Source: Porticoccus sp. (GTDB lineage Bacteria > Pseudomonadota > Gammaproteobacteria > Pseudomonadales > Porticoccaceae). From it: a stretch of DNA of 64,000 bases. A model generated the notes under the pieces. It worked only from the letters and a program-made list of their open reading frames with translations, made no database searches and was not told the origin of the DNA. Of the stretch, positions 1,215 to 18,821 are shown piece by piece; position 1 is the first letter of the stretch, and each line of letters begins with the position of its first letter. The DNA lies in the NCBI RefSeq assembly GCF_047634355.1, contig NZ_JBLIAL010000003.1. The stretch is one strand, 5' to 3'. Both the position numbers and the translations under genes were made by a program.

Positions 1215-2165
1215 TTGTCACAGACTACACCGGATGTTTCGACATTCCAGGGGCTTATTCTGTCTCTGCAACAGTTTTGGGCAAAGCACCACTGCGTCAT
1301 CCTGCAACCGCTGGATATGGAGGTGGGTGCGGGAACCTTCCACCCGGCAACTTTCCTGCGCGCCATCGGCCCCGAGAGCTGGCACAGCGCCTATGTGCAA
1401 CCCTGTCGCCGCCCCACAGATGGCCGCTACGGTGAAAATCCCAACCGACTGCAGCACTACTACCAGTTTCAGGTTGTCCTGAAACCGTCCCCCGATAATA
1501 TCCAGGAGCTGTATCTTGACTCCCTGCGACAACTCGGCATTGATACCAATATCCACGATATTCGATTTGTGGAGGATAACTGGGAATCACCCACGCTGGG
1601 CGCCTGGGGGCTCGGTTGGGAAGTGTGGCTGAATGGCATGGAAGTGACACAATTCACCTACTTCCAGCAGGTGGGCGGCCTGGAATGTTTTCCTGTCACC
1701 GGTGAGATCACCTACGGTCTCGAACGGATTGCCATGTATTTGCAGGGTGTGGATAGCATCTATGACCTGGTATGGACCGAGGGACCAGAAGGCCGTGTCA
1801 CTTACGGGGATGTTTTTCACCAGAATGAGGTGGAGATGTCAGCTTTTAACTTCAATGAGGCCAATGTGGATTTCCTGTTCCACAGCTTCGACGTTTACGA
1901 AAGCGAAAGTCAGCGGTTAATTGAAAAAGGGCTGCCACTACCCGCCTATGAAATGGTCATGAAAGCCTCGCACGCCTTCAATCTGCTGGATGCAAGGCAT
2001 GCCATTTCCGTCACCGAGCGGCAACGTTTCATTCTCCGTGTGAGAACCCTGGCAAGAGCCGTGGCACAGGCGTATTTCAACTCACGTTTGGCACTTGGCT
2101 TCCCGCTGGCACCACCGGCACTTGCCAATCACGTTAAACAGCTGGCAGCAGAGGCTCAAACATGA
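1215..2165 (+). CDS. glyQ: Glycyl-tRNA synthetase alpha subunit
   Basis: [34 protein letters not shown] and [13 protein letters not shown] motifs. Confidence 0.99.
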
Positions 2166-4255
2166 GTTCAGATTTTCTTGTTGAAATTGGCACAGAAGAG
2201 CTCCCGCCAAAGTCACTGTTGAACCTTTCAGAGGCTTTTCGGGAGGAGATTGTAAATCGCCTTTCCGGACTAAAGCTGAATTTTGGTACCGTTTCCTCAT
2301 TTGCATCGCCCCGTCGCCTGGCAGTGGTAGTTCGCGCACTCGATCCGATGACCCCCGGGCAGGAAACCATCAACTGGGGGCCACCCAAATCTGTTGCATT
2401 CGATCAGACTGGCATACCAACTCGCGCCGCCCAGGCCTTTGCCGAAAAAAACAACTGTCCGCTGGCTGCCTTGGCAGAAATGATTGAGCACGATGGCAAA
2501 CAGGAAAAACTGTGCCACAGGGCAAGCCAACCGGGTCAATCAACCACTGCCCTGCTGGGGGATATCGTGTCCGGCGCTCTGGCAGCATTGCCCATTCCAA
2601 AGCGGATGCGCTGGGGTACACGCCGTGAAGAATTCGTCCGGCCAGTTCACTGGATCGTCATGCTATTCGGGAACGATGTTGTCAATACGCAGATAATGGG
2701 CCTACCCACCGGAAACCGAAGTCGCGGTCACCGTTTCCATGCCCCCAATGACATCGTTATTGACAGTCCGGCCAGCTATTGTCAGCAACTGAAGCAGGCT
2801 TACGTGTTGGCAGACTTTGATGAACGCCGCCATTTAATTCGAGAAGGCGTCCACGCCGCCGCCAAAAAAGCCGGCGGCCATGCAGCTATCGATGACGATT
2901 TGCTCAATGAAGTGACCGCCCTCAATGAGTGGCCCGTACCATTGGTGGGCCATTTTGAAGCACGCTTTCTCGACGTTCCCGCGGAAGCACTGATCTCTTC
3001 CATGAAATCTCACCAGAAATATTTTCACGTGCTGGATAACAGCGGCAAGCTAATGCCGCTCTTTATTACCGTTGCCAATATTGAGAGCACAGACCCCGAG
3101 CAGGTAATCCGCGGCAATGAAAGGGTGATACGACCACGCCTGTCGGACGCGGCCTTCTTTTACGAAACTGACCGGCAAACCACGCTGGCCCAACAGCGCG
3201 AGTCACTTCGCAGCATTGTGTTTCAGGCAAAGCTCGGATCGCTGTTTGACAAAACTGAACGGGTTGCCAGCCTGGCCCGGGCATTATCCGAGACAACCGG
3301 TGCCGACGGCGCGCTGGTATTTCGGGCCGGGGAGTTGAGCAAGTCGGATCTGGTGAGCGAAATGGTCGGTGAGTTTGATGACTTGCAAGGGACCATGGGC
3401 CGCTATTATGCCATGCACGATGGTGAAGACCCGGAAGTGGCCAATGCGCTTTTTGAACAATACCTGCCCCGTTTTGCCGGTGACGTCATTCCCACCACCA
3501 GGACCGGGATTACCCTGGCGATCGCCGACCGACTCGATACCCTCGTTGGTATCTTTGGTATCGGGCAACCGCCCAGCGGCTCGAAAGACCCCTTTGCCCT
3601 GCGCCGGGCAAGCCTGGGTGTATTACGGATTATTGTCGAACACAACATCGATATTGATCTCAGGATAGCACTGAACCTGGCTCTTACCCAACACATCGAC
3701 ACATCAACGCTGGTGGAGAGCGCTGACCACATTACCAAGCAAGTACTCACTTACATGCTGGACCGCTTCAAAGGGCGATATGAAGATGAGCATATCCCTG
3801 CCGAGGTCTTCCAGTCTGTCGCTGCGCAACAGCTCAGCAACCCGCTGGACATTCATCTGCGAGTAATGGCCGTACACGCCTTCAACCAACTGCCGGAAGC
3901 TGAGGCACTTGCCGCCGCCAACAAGCGTGTATCCAATATTCTCTCCAAACAAACCGATCTGCCGGATGGCAGGGACGTGAATCCGGCCTTGCTTGTCGAA
4001 CCCGCCGAACAGACACTCGCCACAACACTCGCGGCACTGACCGGTGCAGTCAGCCCGCTCCTTGAAGCCCGGGATTACACCAGCGCGCTGAAAGAGCTGG
4101 CAAAATTGCGGGATCCGGTCGATCAGTTTTTTGATGAGGTCATGGTAATGGCAGAACAGTCAGAAATACGCATGAACCGCCTTGCACTGTTACAAAAGCT
4201 TCAGGCGTTGTTTCTGAATATAGCGGATATTTCCCTGTTGGTAACGGCCAAGTAA
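2162..4255 (+). CDS. glyS: Glycyl-tRNA synthetase beta subunit
   Basis: [23 protein letters not shown]; ATGA-type overlap with glyQ. Confidence 0.99.
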
Positions 4256-4831
4256 ATGACGAGGCTGGTTATTCTAGACCGGGATGGCGTCATCAATCAG
4301 GACTCCGATAATTACATCAAGACTGTCGATGAATGGATCCCTCTGCCCGGCAGTATCGCTGCCATAGCCAGGCTCCACCGGGCCGGTTACAGCGTCGTCG
4401 TAGCTACTAACCAGTCCGGTATTGGGCGGGGGCTGTTTGATCTTGATGACCTGGAAGCCATGCACGAAAAGTTGTCCGGACTTCTGGCCCAACAGGGTGC
4501 CGGGCTGGCGGGAATATTCTATTGCCCTCATACACCAGAGGATCACTGCCATTGCCGAAAACCGGCACCCGGGCTTATCGATGCCATCGCCAGTGAATTT
4601 GGTGTGTCACTGAACGGCGTTCCCCTGATCGGCGACAGTCTGCGGGATTTACAGGCTGGCTTGAGTCACCAGTGCACCCCCATTCTGGTACGTACCGGCA
4701 AAGGTGCCGCCACGGAAAAAAAACTGCCTTCTCAACCGGAAATCGAGTTACAGCAAGCGCCCGTTTTTGATGATCTGGACCAGGCTGTGGATTATTTACT
4801 GGCCCAGGGCACAGGATTTCCTTATGAATAA
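4256..4831 (+). CDS. gmhB: D-glycero-beta-D-manno-heptose 1,7-bisphosphate 7-phosphatase (HAD family)
   Basis: DRDGVIN, TNQSG, CPH..C.CRKP Zn motif, IGDSLRD. Confidence 0.95.
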   Translation: MTRLVILDRDGVINQDSDNYIKTVDEWIPLPGSIAAIARLHRAGYSVVVATNQSGIGRGLFDLDDLEAMHEKLSGLLAQQGAGLAGIFYCPHTPEDHCHCRKPAPGLIDAIASEFGVSLNGVPLIGDSLRDLQAGLSHQCTPILVRTGKGAATEKKLPSQPEIELQQAPVFDDLDQAVDYLLAQGTGFPYE

Positions 4832-5552
4832 GCCGATTATGCTCCTGCGTTCAATGCTGTTTTATCTGCTCTATCTACTGATAGTCTTTGTTTTTGGCCT
4901 CGTTTCTATCATTTCCGGGCCTTTTCTAGGTTACCTGAACCGTCACCGTCTACTCACCACCGCCGGCATGCTGATTAACCGTGCGCTGAGTCTCACCTGT
5001 GGTATTAACGTCCAGGTAGATGGTCTGGAAAATGTTCCCCATACCCCCTGCGTTATCCTCAGCAAGCACCAGTCCACCTGGGAGGTTTTTTTCCTGCAGC
5101 GGCTCTTTATGCCCGTCAGCACCATCCTGAAACAGGAGTTACTGAAAATACCTTTTTTTGGCTGGGGTATCCGTCTGATGCACCCCATTGCCATTGATCG
5201 CAGCAACCCACGCCAGGCCATGAAGCAGGTTATGCAGCAGGGCACACAACGTATCGGCGAAGGGAATCGGGTCGTTATTTATCCAGAGGGGTCCCGCATC
5301 CCTTTTGGTAAAATTGGCAAGTATGGTCGAAGTGGCGCCGCCCTGGCGATTGCAGCGGGTGTGCCCATCATTCCGGTAGCGCATAATGCGGGCTATTGCT
5401 GGCCAGCCCGGCAACTGATGAAACGATCGGGTACGATCCATGTCATTATTGGCAAGCCCATTCTTGTGACACCGGAAAGCAACAGTCAGGCTGTGACAGA
5501 ACAGGTTAAAGACTGGATTGAGACACAGCAGCTAAAATTGGCCGACCAGTAA
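4824..5552 (+). CDS. plsC: 1-acyl-sn-glycerol-3-phosphate acyltransferase
   Basis: SKHQSTWE, YPEGSR, IIPVAHN motifs; start placed at ATG 4824, overlapping the gmhB end. Confidence 0.92.
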   Translation: MNKPIMLLRSMLFYLLYLLIVFVFGLVSIISGPFLGYLNRHRLLTTAGMLINRALSLTCGINVQVDGLENVPHTPCVILSKHQSTWEVFFLQRLFMPVSTILKQELLKIPFFGWGIRLMHPIAIDRSNPRQAMKQVMQQGTQRIGEGNRVVIYPEGSRIPFGKIGKYGRSGAALAIAAGVPIIPVAHNAGYCWPARQLMKRSGTIHVIIGKPILVTPESNSQAVTEQVKDWIETQQLKLADQ

Positions 5553-10690: not shown

Positions 10691-12121
10691 TCAGGTGGTC
10701 AATGCCCGTAGTAGTTGCTTGAAGTCCTCACCTATATCACGACTCGTTTCCTGCAACTCCTTGACCTTCCGGCATGCGTGGAGGACCGTTGTATGATCCC
10801 GGCCACCAAAGGCCTCCCCTATTTCCGGCAAACTGTGATTTGTCAGCTCCTTGGCCAGGGCCATTGCCACCTGCCGTGGTCTGGCAATTGACCGGCTTCT
10901 GCGTTTTGAAAGAAGCTCAGACAGTTTAACCTTGTAATATTCAGATACCACCCGCTGGATATTATCGATGGTCACCAGCTTGTCCTGCAGGGCTAGGAGA
11001 TCCCGAAGTGATTCACGAATAAGGTCTATATCTATTGGCCTACCGGTAAAGTGGGCACTTGCTATAACTCTTTTTAAAGCACCTTCAAGCTCTCGCACAT
11101 TTGACCGGATACGCTGGGCAATAAAAAAAGCAGCATCGGTCGGCAACTCAACCTTTGCCTGGTGGGCCTTTTTAATAAGAATCGCTACGCGGGTTTCCAG
11201 TTCCGGGGGCTCTACCGCAACAGTCAGCCCCCACCCGAAACGGGATTTGAGGCGCTCTTCAAGACCATTGATTTCTTTTGGGTAACGGTCACAGGTCAGT
11301 ATCATTTGCTGACCGCCCTCAAGGAGTGCATTGAAGGTATGAAAAAACTCCTCCTGAGATCGCTCCTTGCCTGCAAAAAATTGGATGTCATCAATCAACA
11401 AAGCATCCACGGAACGGTAGAAGCGCTTGAAATCGTTGATAGCATTTAACTGCAATGCCTTGACCATATCCGCAACAAAACGCTCAGAATGCAGATAAAT
11501 AATTTTTGCATTGGGCTTCTGCAGGCGCAACGCATTACCCACAGCATGCATCAGGTGAGTTTTACCCAACCCAACCCCACCGTAGATAAAGAGGGGGTTA
11601 TAAGACCCACCGGGATTTTCAGCAATCTGCTTCGAAGCAGCCAGTGCCAGCTGATTTGATTTCCCCTCTACAAACGAAGAAAAGGTAAAAACTTCATTTA
11701 TATTGCTCTGATGATTCAGGCCACCCTCAATACCACTGTTTCTTGTGGCTGAATGTGTTTGAGGTCGGGGTGGAACAGTAGCTGGCACCGGATCTGAAAC
11801 AGCAGTATCAACCTCTATATCAGTAGATGGCTTCGAAACAGCTACACCACGCTCCCTTTCCAGGACCCCTGATTCCACGGTTACCGCACATCGCTCCCCG
11901 CAAACCTGCTGATAAATATCGACTATCCGATCAAGAAATTTGTCCGACACCCAGTCTTTCACAAAACGATTGGGTGCCAGCAGACAGACACTGTTTGTGG
12001 TGGTCGACCCTGTAGATTGTGAGGTATCGAGTTTTAGTGGCCTTATCCAGGTATTGAATTGTTGTGCTGGCAACTCTTCCTGAAGATAACCTAGACACTT
12101 TTCCCATAAAATTTGAGCCAA
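10691..12121 (-). CDS. dnaA: Chromosomal replication initiator DnaA
   Basis: [36 protein letters not shown]; TTG start. Confidence 0.99.
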
Positions 12122-12189
12122 ACCAAACCCCTTCTTAGCTTTGTAGGCGGCACGAAAATGCGGATACTTCGTGTTGTTTTTATGGACCC

Positions 12190-12218
12190 AGTCTAGCGAT
12201 AAAAGACTCGGTTATCCA
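12190..12218 (-). promoter_or_regulatory. Putative dnaA promoter with a DnaA box over the -35 (autoregulation)
   Basis: Minus strand TGGATA-17 bp-TAGACT; the -35 lies inside the DnaA box at 12212-12220. Confidence 0.55.
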
Positions 12219-12358
12219 CACCTATCTGGCATTACCATAACAGAGAGAAAACTAATTATAGTTATATTTATCAGCAAGTTATCTAATGCAATAGGTTTTA
12301 TGTTATACACAGAAAAAAAGTTTGTAATGGTTGTTTTTTAATCAAAAACTGTGGATAA
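12212..12358. promoter_or_regulatory. DnaA-box cluster A (dnaA-proximal) with IHF site
   Basis: TTATCCACA 12212-12220, TTATACACA 12303-12311, TGTGGATAA 12350-12358; IHF-type TATCAG-CAAG-TTA 12269-12281; AT-rich 12245-12345. Confidence 0.85.
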
Positions 12359-12464
12359 CCTGTTATCAAAATGTGTGTTTACTGGGGATTTGCTGTCAAA
12401 GAGATCTAGTGGGCAGGCGGTGTTACTGGCCTGCAGTGATTAATGACTGTCCGTCCCAATAAAG

Positions 12465-13838
12465 TCATTTTCCGATGCAAAAACTGGAAAAAATTTCGCC
12501 CAGTAGATCATCCGGGGTAAATTCACCTGTAATTTCAGCCAGGCACTGCTGGGCCAAACGCAAATCTTCGGCAAGTAACTCGCCCGCACCAGCCTCATTG
12601 AGTTGTTTTTCGCCACTACACAGGTATTGCTGGGTACGCTGCAAGGCATCAAGGTGGCGCCGTCTGGCGCTAAAACTCCCCGTCTCGCTACCCGAATAAC
12701 CCATGCACTGCTTGAGATGGTCAACCAGGTAATTCAGCCCATGGTTCTGTTTGGCCGAGATTGTCACTACCGGATGCCCCTGATTCTCTGTGATGCCCAC
12801 CGGAATGTCTGACACATCCGCTTTATTCAAGATGAAACTGATATTTTCGGCCTGTGGAAACCTCCTAAAATACTCCGGCCAGTTCTTTTGTGGATCCAGC
12901 GAATAGGGTTGGCTGCTATCCACCACAAACAGAACCCGATCCGCCTCTTCTATTGCCTGCCAGGCGCGACGGATACCTTCCTGCTCAATCGGGTCACCAG
13001 ACTCGCGCAAGCCCGCTGTGTCGATGATATGCAGCGGCATCCCGTCCAGACTGATCTCTTCGCGTAATAAATCCCTGGTGGTCCCCTCTATATCAGTGAC
13101 TATTGCACTGTCCCTACCCGACAGCGCATTGAGTAAACTGGACTTGCCGGCATTGGGCTTACCTGCAATAACGACAGTCATACCCTCTTTCAACAGGGCA
13201 CCCTGTTTTGCTTGATCAAAAACCCCATCAAACCGGGTAACAATCTCATGCAGATCTGCGCTGACCCGGCCATCAGCCAAAAAGTCGATTTCTTCCTCGG
13301 GAAAATCAATGGCCGCTTCCACATAAACCCGCAGAGCGGTCAATGCCTCCAGTAATTGGTGGATGCTTGTGGAGAAAGCCCCCTGCAGAGAGCGGACTGC
13401 ACAACGGGCAGCCTGCACTGAGGTGGCATCTATGAGATCGGCAATGGCTTCGGCCTGGGTCAGATCGAGCTTGTCATTGAGAAAAGCACGTTGTGAGAAC
13501 TCGCCGGGCAAGGCCAGCCTGGCTCCCAGCTCAACGGCCCGCTGTAGCAGCATATCCATGATAACCGGACCACCATGCCCCTGCAGTTCGAGCACATGCT
13601 CTCCGGTAAAGGAATGGGGTGCAGGAAAATAGATCGCCAGACCGCGATCAATCACCTGAGAATTGCCGTCGTGAAAGTCTGTAAAAACAGCTTTGCGGGA
13701 TTCCAGGCTCTTCCCAATTAACCCCTCGACAAAGGGACCCAGTGCGGCCCCTGAAATACGTATCACGCCGACCCCACCGCGGCCCGGTGGAGTCGCCACT
13801 GCGACAATAACATCCTGATCGTGACTGGGGCTGTTCAT
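12465..13838 (-). CDS. mnmE: tRNA modification GTPase MnmE (TrmE)
   Basis: [41 protein letters not shown]-terminus. Confidence 0.99.
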
Positions 13839-13876
13839 GTATCACCAAAAAGGCTCCCGGAGGAGCCTTGAAGTAT

Positions 13877-15583
13877 TTATTTCTTTTTCGCTGAAGCCGC
13901 TTCTATCTGACGGGTGATCATCCACTGTTGAAGGATCGAAAGAAGGTTGTTTACTGTCCAGTAAAGCACCAGGCCGGCCGGAAAAAACATAAAGAAAAAA
14001 GTAAAGGCAATTGGCATCATTTGCATGATTTTTGCTTGAGTAGGGTCTGGAGGCGTGGGATTCAACTTCTGTTGAATAAACATGCTGGCACCCATGAGCA
14101 ACGGCAGGATAAACAGCGGATCCTTGACGGATAAATCCTGAATCCAGAGTATCCAGGGCGCATGTCGCAACTCCACACTCTCAAACAACACCCAATAAAG
14201 CGCAATGAAAACCGGCATCTGCACTAGGATTGGCAGGCACCCACCCATGGGATTAACCTTTTCACGCTTGTACAGGTTCATTGTCTCCTGGGAGAGTTTC
14301 TGGCGATCATCCCCGTAGAGATCTTTCAGGCGCATCATTTCTGGCTGCAAGCGACGCATGTTCGCCATGGAACGATAGCTGGTAGCTGACAGTTTGTAGA
14401 ATGCCGCCTTGATGAAGATGGTCAAAAGAATAATCGACCAACCCCAATTTCCGATCAATTCGTGCAGCTGGTAGAGCACCCAGAACAACGGTTTGGAAAC
14501 CCACCAGAGCCAACCGTAATCCACGGTCAAATCAAGGTAAGGGGAAATCTTTTCCAGCCTGTATTGATCTTTGGGGCCAGCATAAAATTCGGCCCTGAAC
14601 TCCCCGGTAGTGCCGGGTTCAACTAATTTCTGAGGCGAAGTAAAACCGATGGCATAAAGATCCTGATTGCCAAGCTGACGCAGTGAAAAAGTGTTGGTTG
14701 TTGATTGATCCGGAATCCAGGCACTGATGAAATAGTGTTGAATCATCGCAACCCAGCCACCTGTCAGGCTGTCCTTGAAGGGTTTTTCAGCGAGATCACC
14801 GAAATCGAGCTTTTTGTAGTTTTCTTCTGTAGTCCGTAGCGCTGCACCTACATAGGGGTTCATCCCCATTCCGGTAGCCACCTGGGGCTCATGACTGTCG
14901 CGCTTGATCTGGCCAAACAAGCCCGCCTTCCAGTTATCAGTACCCCGATTGTTGACCAGATAACTCACCTGGATCAGATGATCGCCCCGGCTAAAGGTGA
15001 ACCGTTTGGTAATGATCACGTCATTCTGCTGGAAAACCATGTCAACCTGGAGCTGGTCAGAATCTCCAGCGAGTTGATAGTCATTTTTTGCAGCCTTGAA
15101 GAGCGGACGCCCTTCCGTGTTATCTGTGCCGTCGGCTCCGATCAAGCCGCTTTGTGCAATATAAGTCGTACTGGCTGTCTGGTTGAGCAGTACAAAAGGC
15201 GAGGAATCCTCTTCCAGCTCCGTCAAGTGTTCTGGCAACGCCACCCGAACAATATCGCCACCCCGGGTGTCAATCAGCACATTGAGCACATCTGTGGATA
15301 CAGATAACAAACGGTCTTCCGTCGTTTTCGGTGCTGTCGATTCAACGGGTGTTGACGTTACCGGGGAAGTATCACTTTGTAGTGCAGGTATTTCGTTATC
15401 AGCAGAAGCCGGTGTTACATCACTGGGTGTTTGTGCCGTTTCCGGGGCTAAAACAGTTTCTTCAGAAACAGCACTCTGATTTTCCTGCTGAGAACTCTGG
15501 AAAGTGTCCCACTCAAGAAACAACATATAAAGCACTACCAGCATGCCAGCTATCAGTAATGAACGTTGCCAATCCATAGTCAT
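13877..15583 (-). CDS. yidC: Membrane protein insertase YidC
   Basis: FYAGPK, VDYGWLW, GNWGWSII, NPMGGCLP, PAGLVLYW; true start may be ATG at 15577 (MDWQR). Confidence 0.98.
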   Translation of the reverse strand: MTMDWQRSLLIAGMLVVLYMLFLEWDTFQSSQQENQSAVSEETVLAPETAQTPSDVTPASADNEIPALQSDTSPVTSTPVESTAPKTTEDRLLSVSTDVLNVLIDTRGGDIVRVALPEHLTELEEDSSPFVLLNQTASTTYIAQSGLIGADGTDNTEGRPLFKAAKNDYQLAGDSDQLQVDMVFQQNDVIITKRFTFSRGDHLIQVSYLVNNRGTDNWKAGLFGQIKRDSHEPQVATGMGMNPYVGAALRTTEENYKKLDFGDLAEKPFKDSLTGGWVAMIQHYFISAWIPDQSTTNTFSLRQLGNQDLYAIGFTSPQKLVEPGTTGEFRAEFYAGPKDQYRLEKISPYLDLTVDYGWLWWVSKPLFWVLYQLHELIGNWGWSIILLTIFIKAAFYKLSATSYRSMANMRRLQPEMMRLKDLYGDDRQKLSQETMNLYKREKVNPMGGCLPILVQMPVFIALYWVLFESVELRHAPWILWIQDLSVKDPLFILPLLMGASMFIQQKLNPTPPDPTQAKIMQMMPIAFTFFFMFFPAGLVLYWTVNNLLSILQQWMITRQIEAASAKKK

Positions 15584-15814
15584 TTAACTCTTTTCTTTTT
15601 CAGATTGCGGTACGGGGTCATAGCCACCCGCATGAAAGGGGTGACACTTTAACAGACGCTTAAACCCAAGATAGCCCCCTTTTGAAACACCATGCACTTT
15701 GATGGCCTCTTCTGCATAGCAGGAACAACTGGGATAAAACCGACAGTTTTTTCCCAACAGAGGGCTTATCAGGTACTGATAGCCCCTCAGCATAGCCAAC
15801 AATAATGAACGCAT
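15584..15814 (-). CDS. yidD: Membrane protein insertion efficiency factor YidD
   Basis: [18 protein letters not shown] and [13 protein letters not shown]. Confidence 0.96.
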
Positions 15815-15816
15815 GA

Positions 15817-16182
15817 TTACTGTTCTGCCTGAAGCTTTCGTGATAACCGACGCCAGCTGTTTTCCAGCAGGTCGGTTTGTTCCCTGGGTGTCAAACGATC
15901 CATACCCTGACGTGCCAGAAATACGATATCAAGGGAGTCAAGGAGGCTTTGAGAGTGACGAAAGGTTTCACGAACAACTCGCTTTACACGATTGCGATCT
16001 ACCGATCGACGAATGTTTTTTTTTGCTACCACGAGACCGAGACGTGGCTGGCAAAGCCCGTTAGGCCTGGCCAGCAATAAAAGGTTGGGATGCGCTACTT
16101 TGTAACAGGTATCGGAAAAAACAGCCTGGTAAGCCCGGGCTGTTAATAGACGCTTGTTTCTGCCAAAAGAACTCTCGGGCAC
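15817..16182 (-). CDS. rnpA: Ribonuclease P protein component
   Basis: [33 protein letters not shown] (RNR motif); start assigned to GTG 16182 by alignment with known RnpA N-termini. Confidence 0.93.
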
Positions 16183-16208
16183 AGGACTGCCCTGGTCGAG
16201 GGTAACAA

Positions 16209-16343
16209 TCAGGCGGCCAGACGCTTCCGGCCCTTGGCCCGGCGACGGTTTATTAGCTGGCGACCATTTTTTGTTGCCATGCGTGCACGAAATCCGTGGG
16301 TACGCTTGCGCTTTAATACACTGGGCTGGAATGTTCTTTTCAT
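16209..16343 (-). CDS. rpmH: 50S ribosomal protein L34
   Basis: Translated by hand (below the ORF-track cutoff): [44 protein letters not shown], 44 aa. Confidence 0.99.
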
Positions 16344-16387
16344 GGCGTACTTCCTTAAGCTGGCCTGTTACCTTCAAAGGGCGGGGG

Positions 16388-16416
16388 ATTTTAAAGAATA
16401 TCCGGTGCCAGATCAA
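16388..16416 (-). promoter_or_regulatory. Putative sigma70 promoter of the rpmH operon
   Basis: Minus strand TTGATC-17 bp-TAAAAT, about 45 nt upstream of the rpmH ATG. Confidence 0.65.
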
Positions 16417-16457
16417 TCAAAGATATTTACCCGCAAGCAAATAACCCGGAAGTAAAC

Positions 16458-16790
16458 TTACCCACAGGCTGGCCAGTGGTTAAAACCCGGTTATCCACAT
16501 CTGTGTTAAAACTGTGGGTAACTCACGGGAAAATTCAGTGGATTACCTATGAACTGAATTGTGGGTAACTCATGATAAATAACAGCTGTGCACAACTGGC
16601 ATATTCACCCACAGGTTACACAAAGCAAAGGAGCCCTTTCAAAGCAACTTACCAAGTGTTTTTAATCGCCAGTAAGTTATTGATAATAAATATATATTTA
16701 AATATAACCACAGATTAACCGTTGTATATATATAACTACTACTTATTAATATCTATATAAAGAAAATATACTTGATCTATTTTTATAATT
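16458..16790. other. Probable oriC (cluster B): DnaA boxes, IHF site and DNA unwinding element
   Basis: Boxes TTACCCACA 16458, TTATCCACA 16491, TGTGGGTAA 16513 and 16560, TGTGCACAA 16588; IHF TAA-GTTA-TTGATA 16673-16685; very AT-rich 16670-16790; trio-like AAT-AAG-TAG-TAG (minus strand 16736-16747); 13-mer-like GATCTATTTTTAT 16774-16786; strand bias of flanking genes switches here. Confidence 0.8.
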
Positions 16791-16802
16791 GCCCGGTGTT
16801 TG

Positions 16803-16841
16803 ACTGCACACAGTCCCCGGAGCGGGGAATCTGTGTGCAGT
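16803..16841. repeat. Strong inverted repeat beside the unwinding element
   Basis: ACTGCACACAG-TCCCC-ggagc-GGGGA-at-CTGTGTGCAGT (11+5 bp stem). Confidence 0.85.
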
Positions 16842-16928
16842 ATGGAAACAACGAAACGGTTAATTTATAGGCAATTTACTTTATACTCCCTGCCCTTGAT
16901 TAAAAAACCAGAGAATAGTCTTTTGCCC

Positions 16929-18821
16929 ATGTATTACCCGGAAAAGTTCGATGTCATTGTTATTGGTGGCGGCCATGCCGGCACTGAAGCCTGCTTGGCT
17001 GCAGCTCGAATGGGCTGTAAGACCCTTTTGCTCACACATAACATTGAAACTTTAGGACAGATGTCCTGTAACCCTGCGATTGGCGGGATCGGCAAAAGTC
17101 ATCTGGTGAAGGAAGTGGATGCCCTGGGTGGTGTCATGGCTCGTGCAACGGATCTCAGCGGCATTCAGTTTCGAACGCTCAATGCCCGAAAAGGCCCGGC
17201 TGTCAGGGCAACCAGAGCCCAGGCAGACCGTATTTTATACAAGGCAGCTGTCCGACAAGTTCTGGAGAATCAGCCCAATTTGTGGATTTTCCAGCAGGCA
17301 GCTGAAGATCTGATTATGTCCGGCACCCGGGTGAGCGGTGTGGTGACGCAGATGGGGTTGCGTTTTGAGGCGAAAACCATTGTTTTGACAGCGGGCACCT
17401 TCCTTGCCGGAAAAATTCATATCGGGATGGAAAACTATGCCGGGGGGCGGGCCGGGGATCCTCCTGCAATGGGGTTGGCGGCAAAGCTCCGGGAGTTACC
17501 CCTGCGGGTTGACCGATTAAAGACTGGCACGCCGCCAAGAATCGATGCGAGAAGCGTCAATCTTGAGGGGCTTCAGGTCCAGTGGGGCGATACGCCGGAA
17601 CCTGTCATGTCATTTCTCGGAGATACCTCTCAGCACCCGCAGCAAACCTGTTGTTACATTACCTACACCAACGAGCGCACCCATGAAATTATTCGTGGTG
17701 GAATGGACCGTTCACCGATGTATACCGGTGTAATTGAGGGCGTTGGCCCACGGTACTGCCCTTCCATCGAAGACAAGGTAGTCCGTTTTGCTGACAAGCA
17801 AAGTCATCAGATATTCATCGAACCAGAGGGGCTGACAACCCATGAGCTCTACCCCAATGGAATTTCGACCAGCTTGCCTTTTGATGTGCAAATGGAGCTG
17901 GTTCGATCAATAGCCGGCTTTGAAAACGCGCATATAACCCGACCTGGTTATGCCATTGAGTACGACTATTTCAATCCGCAGGATTTACAGTACTCATTGG
18001 AGAGCAAACATATTGACGGGTTATTCTTTGCTGGGCAGATTAACGGCACGACTGGGTATGAGGAAGCTGCCGCCCAGGGCTTATTGGCTGGTTTGAATGC
18101 CGGGCTACAGAGTCGCGAAATGGCGCCATGGTGTCCCCGACGCGATGAAGCCTATATTGGCGTGCTGGTAGATGACCTGATCACCATGGGGACGCACGAA
18201 CCCTATCGGATGTTTACCAGTCGCGCTGAATACCGATTGTTGTTGCGGCAGGACAATGCGGACATGCGGCTCACCGAAAAAGGGCGGGAGTTGGGGTTGG
18301 TTGATGATCAACGTTGGCAGCGCTTCTGTGAAAAAAGTGAAGCGGTAGCGCGAGAGCAGCAGCGATTGAAGAGTTGCTGGGTCCAGCCTGGCAGTCCCCA
18401 GGCAGCAATGATTGCCGAAAAAACCGGCTCTGTGCCAATGCATGAATACAGTTTCTTCGAACTGTTGAAACGACCGGAGCTGCATTACGACGATATTCAA
18501 TCACTGCAGGAAGCGCCGTTGGATATTGCCGGGGAGGTGGCCGAACAGGTTGAGATAGATGCCAAGTATGCCGGTTACATCGCACGCCAGCAGGACGAAA
18601 TTGCTCGCATGCAGCGTCAGGAAAACACCCCGATACCTGCCGATTTTGACTTCAGTGCGGTCAAGGGGTTGTCCAACGAGGTCAAGCAGAAGTTGATGGC
18701 CGCACGCCCGGATACCCTGTCGAGGGCCTCTCGTATACCGGGTGTCACACCAGCGGCAATATCCCTGCTACTGATCTATCTCAAGCGAAAATCCATGGTT
18801 GAAAAGAAGATCGCTTCCTAG
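16929..18821 (+). CDS. mnmG: tRNA uridine-5-carboxymethylaminomethyl modification enzyme MnmG (GidA)
   Basis: [50 protein letters not shown]; start ATG 16929. Confidence 0.99.

Follow-up and report, generated by a model that had tools for sequence, protein, structure and literature searches.

An in-place inversion of the rpmH-mnmE operon between two DnaA-box regions in the Porticoccaceae

In a window of 64,000 nucleotides from the marine bacterium Porticoccus sp. (the whole stretch of contig NZ_JBLIAL010000003.1, assembly GCF_047634355.1, that was analysed), the transcription unit rpmH-rnpA-yidD-yidC-mnmE is turned around in place between dnaA and mnmG (gidA). The genes, identified with NCBIfam equivalog models, follow each other as gyrB-recF-dnaN-dnaA(-), mnmE-yidC-yidD-rnpA-rpmH(-) and mnmG-rsmG-parA-parB-atp(+), whereas in the canonical order the leftward gyrB-recF-dnaN-dnaA cluster is divergent from rpmH-rnpA-yidD-yidC-mnmE, which runs on into mnmG-rsmG-parA-parB. 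The initial annotation of this DNA had the 3' end of mnmE preceding dnaA(-) and rpmH(-) diverging from mnmG(+), with which the gene coordinates agree (Table 1), and regarded the five-gene block as flipped against the conserved layout, as is borne out by 117 other gammaproteobacterial loci being canonical. Few bacterial gene orders are as conserved as that around rpmH and dnaA, which is much used for locating origins. The flipped order is fixed in, and restricted to, one clade, and the spacer now separating rpmH from mnmG is homologous to the oriC2 region of canonical genomes. We consider it likely that an ancestor of the Porticoccaceae underwent one inversion of the rpmH-mnmE unit between a pre-existing oriC1 and a pre-existing oriC2, and that oriC2 is the site which fires.

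Distribution and age of the inversion

For tracing the gene order in relatives, 13 window proteins were mapped onto 80 loci from a scan with one genome per species, which placed the window in Porticoccus (Porticoccaceae, Cellvibrionales) and in which the closest MnmE (93% identity) belongs to an uncultured Porticoccus metagenome-assembled genome (MAG). All five Porticoccus loci carry the window order and every other informative locus is canonical, the latter group including Microbulbifer, Oceanicoccus, Pseudomonas, Marinomonas, Halomonas, Vibrio and Colwellia. A metagenome scan contributed eight further inverted contigs with MnmE identities down to 58%, resulting in a tally of 14 inverted versus 117 canonical loci. 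Altogether, 21 inverted loci were collected (the window, L001-L005, L081-L085, L093, L147, L160 and L161-L167), all of them from Porticoccaceae (Porticoccus, SAR92 and UBA1117). The MnmE clusters of the deep members bear the NCBI names "Porticoccaceae bacterium", "SAR92 bacterium BACL16" and "Porticoccaceae bacterium UBA1117", and the contigs coding for these proteins likewise show the inverted order. In neighbour-joining trees of MnmE and of MnmE plus YidC, where 14 of the 21 inverted loci were placed, these form one exclusive clade having the canonical Microbulbifer as sister.

Hence, the inversion is a single old event common to every sampled member of the Porticoccaceae. Among the options initially put forward, the fixed lineage trait is the one that holds, as all 21 loci agree in order and the junctions are spanned in independent assemblies, and the synteny comparison proposed as a check points to the same old trait. 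While the dual oriC1/oriC2 layout is already known, as are isolated rearrangements of the region in single genomes, no report of a family-wide in-place operon inversion, of an rpmH-mnmE inversion or of Porticoccus origins was found in a literature search that was incomplete and thus leaves novelty unproven.

DnaA boxes and breakpoints

The block is bordered by two spacers, A between dnaA and mnmE (343 bp) and B between rpmH and mnmG (585 bp), and all three perfect DnaA boxes (TTATCCACA) of the window are located within these 928 bp. Among boxes with at most one mismatch, 7 of 23 in the window fall in the two spacers, compared to about 0.2 expected (from the shuffle mean of 13.4 per window). 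In canonical relatives, too, DnaA boxes cluster twice, namely between rpmH and dnaA and again upstream of mnmG. The initial statement that both breakpoints fall in DnaA-box clusters is correct insofar as such clusters fill both junction spacers, whereas the breaks themselves are found where the clusters end on the outside, between the nearest box and either the rpmH promoter or the 3' end of mnmE, and appear to be bracketed to about 12359-12464 and 16417-16457. Intergenic alignment with Microbulbifer, Oceanicoccus and Pseudomonas recovered only motifs (boxes, IHF sites and promoters) and a possible CCTGCCCAC / TTGATA(A/C)CA(G/A)G match. Only the transcription unit was turned, with both box regions keeping their place and their orientation to dnaA and mnmG, respectively. 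The notion that the flip reshuffles origin halves had to be given up, since the clusters occupy the same two places in canonical genomes with their orientation kept. The opposed boxes at 12350 and 16458 could have supplied microhomology for the crossover.

The rpmH-mnmG spacer as oriC2

According to Weigel (2025, bioRxiv 10.1101/2025.08.05.668638), an oriC2 is recognized by an outward-transcribed gene at the flank, a DNA unwinding element (DUE), an R1-type DnaA box (TGTGNAWAA), an IHF site and a box array, with R1 one to two helical turns from the DUE and reading away from that gene, and the conserved C of the IHF site about 21 bp beyond. When read from mnmG, all these structural elements are present in spacer B. 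The least stable 60-mer of the entire window (16725-16785; -56.7 versus a mean of -86.0 kcal/mol, standard deviation 4.9) is found here, corroborating the AT-rich unwinding element annotated near 16.7 kb. An R1 box followed after 18 nt by an IHF site, and preceded by DNA of at least 73% AT, occurs in eight of nine inverted loci at 140-240 nt upstream of mnmG and also in L161-L167, at a background rate of this R1-IHF module of 0.013 per 650 nt. Canonical loci of Microbulbifer, Colwellia, Marinomonas and Enterovibrio have the module equally far from mnmG. Relatives of the window carry TGTGGCTAA, TGTGGATAA or TGTGGGTAA as R1, with none or one mismatch in L001, L005, L083, L093, L161 and L163. By eye, the AT-rich sequence, the mnmG promoter motif and the convergent box pair are common to spacer B and canonical mnmG-upstream regions, and a TATAAT-like motif with a C-rich, T-rich stretch after it is conserved upstream of mnmG across families. 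Judged from these elements, spacer B is a complete putative oriC2 that stayed with mnmG.

At its far end, spacer B adjoins the rpmH promoter, with only about 40 nt from the rpmH -35 element to the first oriC2 box; inverted and canonical loci alike share the conserved motif AAGGGCGGGGGATTTTAAAG upstream of rpmH. RNA contigs from metatranscriptomes stop at 16364/16365 towards rpmH, begin at or beyond 16890 towards mnmG and leave 16524-16774 uncovered; these contigs are sparse over mnmE and spacer A, where RNA coverage is nil.

Some further observations concern the variability of this spacer. The convergent box pair, TGTG(G/C)A(C/A/T)AA and T.A.CCACAG separated by 9 nt, is found upstream of mnmG in Porticoccus (L002, L005), Neptuniibacter (L006) and Pseudomonas (L019), and is degenerate in the oriC2 of Microbulbifer. 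In the isolate Porticoccus sp. W117 (L005), the rpmH-mnmG spacer bears another oriC2 array with three perfect TTATCCACA boxes, two of them just one base apart; judged from this locus, the array turns over fast with the DUE-R1-IHF core being kept. Between DUE and mnmG promoter of the window, at 16804-16840, lies a 37-nt near-perfect palindrome (CTGCACACAG TCCCCG GAG CGGGGA AT CTGTGTGCAG) which occurs once in the window and has a single-stranded folding energy of -18.9 kcal/mol (z = -7.7). L001 and L081, the relatives with 93% identity, have a different sequence at this point and no such palindrome. It could represent an insertion peculiar to the strain, a cruciform or a barrier to transcription at the edge of the origin.

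The dnaA upstream region

In spacer A, the DnaA boxes upstream of dnaA expected of an oriC1 are present, two of them perfect (12212 and 12350) and one with a single mismatch (12303). However, the left neighbour is the mnmE 3' end and not rpmH, as the oriC1 flank criterion has it, and the DUE-R1-IHF module, when read from dnaA, was found in none of 14 inverted loci. By eye, the spacer looks collinear with the dnaA-proximal 260 nt or so of canonical Microbulbifer. Microbulbifer and Pseudomonas have a box in the same orientation as that at 12212 at 68-120 nt before dnaA, and IHF sites equivalent to that of the window were seen by eye in most inverted loci as well as in the dnaA-upstream DNA of Microbulbifer (AATCAAGCACTTG) and Pseudomonas (AATCAAGATCTTA). 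The perfect box at 12350-12358 is kept in the clade, in many cases as two tandem boxes 11 nt apart, and forms a short inverted repeat (I5) with the boxes at 16458 and 16491. On these sequence features, spacer A is read as the probable dnaA-proximal remnant of oriC1, namely the autoregulated dnaA promoter, and not as an origin. A terminator scan between mnmE and dnaA found nothing.

The IHF consensus (WATCARNNNNTTR) between the two dnaA-upstream boxes was observed in most Porticoccaceae loci and before dnaA also in Microbulbifer and Pseudomonas (L040, L017 and L019), pointing to a module of box plus IHF site that is widely conserved at dnaA promoters. Directly 3' of mnmE, at about 11370-11490 of L005, spacer A of strain W117 exceeds that of other Porticoccus by about 180 nt, this surplus being bounded by a perfect 28-nt inverted repeat (GTTCGGAGCGTATTAGTCTTTTCCAGAC ... 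GTCTGGAAAAGACTAATACGCTCCGAAC), so that this insertion at the junction looks like a miniature inverted-repeat transposable element or a large hairpin.

Skew evidence for the active origin

Cumulative GC skew, proposed initially as a check for the origin, has its minimum and turn at about 16-17 kb. In addition, GC skew at fourfold-degenerate sites was compared between the five block genes and their flanking genes, on an identical gene set for every taxon and with Pseudomonas and Vibrionaceae for calibration. In Pseudomonas, with a co-directional operon and an oriCI reported as necessary and sufficient, block minus flanks amounts to -0.02 (n = 18), and in Vibrionaceae, with an origin at gidA and a head-on operon, to -0.22 (n = 7). 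The value of +0.03 for the inverted clade (n = 10) corresponds to an operon on the leading strand, with extra Porticoccaceae loci mostly reaching +0.11 to +0.12, while the operon of the canonical sister Microbulbifer looks head-on (-0.16, n = 4). Block orientation and leading-strand signal together place the origin on the rpmH side, at oriC2, in agreement with the skew minimum and the DUE. Replication, thus, most probably starts at oriC2 near 16.7 kb, as had been supposed from the unwinding element. Given this origin, two further suppositions of the initial annotation are supported, namely that the operon is co-directional with the leftward fork, its skew being at the leading-strand value, and that the dnaA operon comes downstream of the flipped operon, as is evident from the gene order.

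Microbulbifer has a strong AT-rich element upstream of mnmG only, and its rpmH-dnaA spacer does not show such an element beside rpmH, which suggests that this genus fires from oriC2 with the operon head-on. A block skew 0.16-0.22 below the flanks, resembling Vibrionaceae, was observed at canonical loci of Microbulbifer (L017, L020, L040, L041), Marinomonas (L009, L012, L016, L028, L035) and Marinobacter (L048, L049), suggesting that all of these initiate at the mnmG-linked oriC2 and have a head-on rpmH operon.

Alternative explanations

The unusual gene order alone might raise the suspicion of a misassembled window, as initially considered. The probability of this is negligible, since the same order is present in independent MAGs, in the isolate Porticoccus sp. 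W117 (L005) and in SAR92 genomes, and since Logan contigs from eight independent public metagenome runs, aligned to 11800-17200, are in line with it. For five of these runs (X1, X3, X7, X8 and X39), the entire region is contained in individual contigs (11-38 kb) with 0-46 differences; in X2, both junctions are spanned, each by its own contig, and in X5 one contig crosses the junction at spacer A and extends into spacer B. Altogether, seven runs span one or both junctions, exclusively in the window orientation. Contigs of run X10 break at AT-rich spots only; at the low coverage of this run, the breaks coincide exactly with both AT-rich elements (12284-12300 and 16689-16833), which are both assembly-fragile, and this may explain why some MAG contigs end there. 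A switchable inversion, in which the block would flip phase-variably between short inverted DnaA boxes and thereby change origin half and gene pairing, is hardly more credible. The opposed boxes near both borders (12350, TGTGGATAA, versus 16458/16491, TTAYCCACA), i.e., the I5 pair, would be suitable for such a mechanism. However, this pair has just 20 nt at 80% complementarity, nothing longer than a DnaA box plus flanks bounding the block, and no recombinase gene is present in or beside the block, the open reading frames scanned between 1.2 and 31.6 kb of the window all being housekeeping genes. Moreover, 21 of 21 clade members, down to 58% MnmE identity, share one orientation with no canonical locus inside the clade, the fourfold skew of the block is already equilibrated to leading-strand values, and inversion joints were not found in the Logan contigs of the eight runs, which, however, cannot reveal rare alternative orientations. 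An apparent joint in X39 (12482 to 12963) was spurious, consisting of 20-27-nt matches from a contig of another organism.

Two other readings concern the origin itself. As the rpmH-dnaA spacer of canonical genomes has the DUE and R1 of oriC1 towards rpmH (Weigel, 2025; L014, L019, L048), a breakpoint near dnaA would have shifted them along with rpmH, so that spacer B might be a translocated oriC1 and the origin might have moved by 4 kb. This is very improbable. The DUE of spacer B adjoins mnmG and not rpmH, its sequence and the mnmG promoter look homologous to the region upstream of mnmG in Microbulbifer, and the 40 nt or so between the rpmH -35 element and the first box leave a short distance only. 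The R1-IHF module reads from mnmG, at 140-240 nt as in canonical relatives, while reading from rpmH gave just a single, off-position match in 10 loci; on the basis of module orientation and distance from mnmG, the relocated oriC1 was rejected. Less remote, albeit still unlikely, is a dual or bipartite origin, in which spacer A still fires or joins oriC2 by DnaA looping over the 4.2-kb block. Looping mediated by DnaA bound at two clusters operates in B. subtilis and H. pylori, and the presence in spacer A of two perfect boxes, an IHF site and DNA that melts readily, all conserved family-wide, would fit, as would the finding that oriC1 and oriC2 of P. aeruginosa each support plasmid replication and open in vitro. 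Against this, the DUE-R1-IHF module is missing from spacer A in either reading direction (0/14), the same two boxes and IHF site precede dnaA in canonical genomes, fitting dnaA autoregulation, and forks starting from spacer A would meet the block head-on, of which the block skew gives no sign.

The inversion between two pre-existing regions with initiation at oriC2 also has to accommodate some contrary points. The bootstrap value of the inverted clade is just 58/100, and the breakpoints are not placeable to the nucleotide, the closest canonical relative being about 60% identical in MnmE. The R1 box of the window has two mismatches. The fourfold-skew contrast is based on about 350-450 G+C sites per genome, and one Porticoccaceae species (L163/L164) is at -0.13. 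With two perfect boxes, an IHF site and the 60-mer at 12247-12307 that ranks third in instability within the window, spacer A may possess some origin activity, and the use of oriC2 is deduced from skews and architecture.

Proposed history and consequences

In the history favoured here, a single inversion would have turned the rpmH-rnpA-yidD-yidC-mnmE unit from promoter to 3' end, while oriC1 (between rpmH and dnaA) and oriC2 (upstream of mnmG) predated the flip and remained in place. Spacer A would then be the leftover of oriC1, comprising the dnaA-proximal boxes, the IHF site and the dnaA promoter, and spacer B the full oriC2 with mnmG promoter, DUE, R1, IHF site and box array, now adjoining the rpmH promoter. 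In the simplest case, the common ancestor already fired from oriC2 and the flip aligned the operon with the fork, and selection against head-on conflict may have fixed the inversion. As a consequence, the highly expressed operon would be on the leading strand of the leftward fork, different from E. coli, Vibrio and apparently Microbulbifer, where it meets the fork head-on within the first 4 kb. Furthermore, mnmE transcription would no longer enter the oriC2 box array, and the divergent rpmH and mnmG promoters now bracketing oriC2 should favour negative supercoiling and DUE opening. The dnaA operon would directly follow mnmE, with no recognisable terminator in between, and would have kept its own box-regulated promoter.

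Going beyond this, the flip might be an adaptive repair after an origin change that also couples initiation to ribosome synthesis via divergent rpmH/mnmG transcription, which we put forward as a tentative and rather doubtful idea. Initiation at oriC2 combined with decay of oriC1 would have left the rpmH operon head-on within the first 4 kb, a conflict ended by the inversion; a strong, growth-rate-controlled ribosomal-protein promoter firing outward would have replaced transcription into oriC2; and the divergent transcription of rpmH and mnmG would help to open the DUE. If true, Porticoccaceae and Microbulbiferaceae would represent a natural paired experiment on replication-transcription co-orientation at an origin. 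A lineage in which only oriC2 appears to retain full origin architecture would be a new data point for the dual oriC1/oriC2 story, and the re-orientation between the two sites has the direction expected under selection against head-on replication-transcription conflict.

With rpmH parted from dnaA and facing mnmG, the Porticoccaceae illustrate that a conserved gene order can break cleanly and remain broken family-wide. Origin predictors and genome-start conventions based on the rpmH/dnaA pair would misplace oriC in this family, including SAR92, which is an abundant marine clade. The inversion is a simple synapomorphy and could act as a rare genomic change marker for the Porticoccaceae.

Features of the region

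The genes and sequence elements of the region are compiled in Table 1. To the left of dnaA, the cluster continues with dnaN, recF and gyrB, and glyQS is located farther out. At 1215-5552, glyQ-glyS-gmhB and an acyltransferase gene are encoded on the plus strand, i.e., left of the origin and, accordingly, head-on to the leftward fork; the local GC skew is about zero.

Table 1. Genes and predicted sequence elements around the inverted unit (positions refer to the window).
Feature	Position	Strand	Remarks
dnaA	10691-12121	-	TIGR00362 DnaA, E 1.8e-180; heads dnaA-dnaN-recF-gyrB, reaching down to 5890
Spacer A	12122-12464		now adjoining mnmE 3' end; architecture kept in 14/14 inverted loci
Perfect DnaA box TTATCCACA	12212-12220	+	some 91 nt before dnaA; unchanged in every inverted locus
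AT-rich stretch between perfect boxes	12221-12349		74% AT; probably dnaA promoter region
IHF-consensus site TATCAGCAAGTTA (WATCARNNNNTTR)	12269-12281	+
DnaA box, one mismatch	12303-12311
Perfect DnaA box (TGTGGATAA on plus strand)	12350-12358	-	nearest box to left border of the block
Hairpin GCAGGC-N10-GCCTGC	12413-12434	-	3' of mnmE; no T-run, so no canonical intrinsic terminator
Inverted unit rpmH-rnpA-yidD-yidC-mnmE	12465-16343	-
mnmE	12465-13838	-	NCBIfam equivalog
yidC	13877-15583	-	NCBIfam equivalog
yidD	15584-15814	-	NCBIfam equivalog
rnpA	15817-~16200	-	NCBIfam equivalog
rpmH	16209-16343	-	NCBIfam equivalog
Spacer B	16344-16928
rpmH promoter TTGATC-17 nt-TAAAAT	16388-16416	-	promoter scan
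DnaA-box array of putative oriC2, six boxes	16458-16613		16458(+), 16491(+, perfect), 16513(-), 16560(-) and convergent pair
Convergent box pair TGTGCACAA / TCACCCACA	16587-16595 / 16605-16613		9-nt spacer
IHF site TATCAATAACTTA	16673-16685	-	exact match to consensus (WATCARNNNNTTR); 18 nt past R1, conserved C is 22nd base
R1-type DnaA box TGTGGTTAT	16704-16712	-	beside DUE
DUE of putative oriC2	16714-16794		80% AT
Probable mnmG promoter -10 TTTATACT, then CCCTGCCCTT	16880-16887	+
mnmG (gidA)	16929-18821	+	TIGR00136, E 2.8e-275; then rsmG, parA, parB, atp operon, glmU, glmS

Comparison with known systems

Short inverted sequences bounding a DNA segment are reminiscent of site-specific Hin/Gin/Fim-type switches. 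The locus described here lacks a recombinase and long inverted repeats, shows a single orientation in every sample and does not behave like a switch. According to established genome maps, the rpmH operon of E. coli and Vibrio points at oriC and is oriented against the fork, while that of Porticoccus is transcribed away from oriC. Nevertheless, the oriC of E. coli and Vibrio cholerae (gidA-oriC-mioC; L029, L076) resembles the Porticoccus site as an origin adjacent to the gidA promoter, whose DUE faces gidA and is accompanied by an R1 box, the IHF site following about 21 bp on. GATC-rich 13-mers and mioC are lacking in Porticoccus, which is not part of a dam clade.

The closest parallel is the dual-origin layout predicted for 88 of 91 Pseudomonadaceae and 138 of 163 Halomonadaceae (Weigel, 2025, bioRxiv 10.1101/2025.08.05.668638; PMC13438810). 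Common to these families and the Porticoccaceae are box regions at dnaA and mnmG, about 4-5 kb apart with the rpmH-mnmE operon in between, as well as the oriC2 order of mnmG promoter, DUE, R1, IHF site and boxes, the boxes preceding the gidA promoter. In contrast, the Porticoccaceae have the operon inverted, with rpmH no longer beside oriC1, which itself has lost its DUE-R1 part. In P. aeruginosa, both oriC1 and oriC2 (oriCII) replicate plasmids (Weigel, 2025; PMC13438810) and oriCI was reported as necessary and sufficient (PMC13438810), whereas in Porticoccus skew and architecture indicate oriC2. A break between rpmH and oriC1/dnaA which separates the rpmH operon from dnaA is also found in two Halomonadaceae with a rearranged oriC2/oriC1 region, Halomonas jeotgali and Zymobacter palmae, the latter having mnmE-rpmH transposed off oriC1. 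These, however, are isolated genomes not showing a simple in-place inversion, while the flip in Porticoccaceae is in place and fixed throughout the family.

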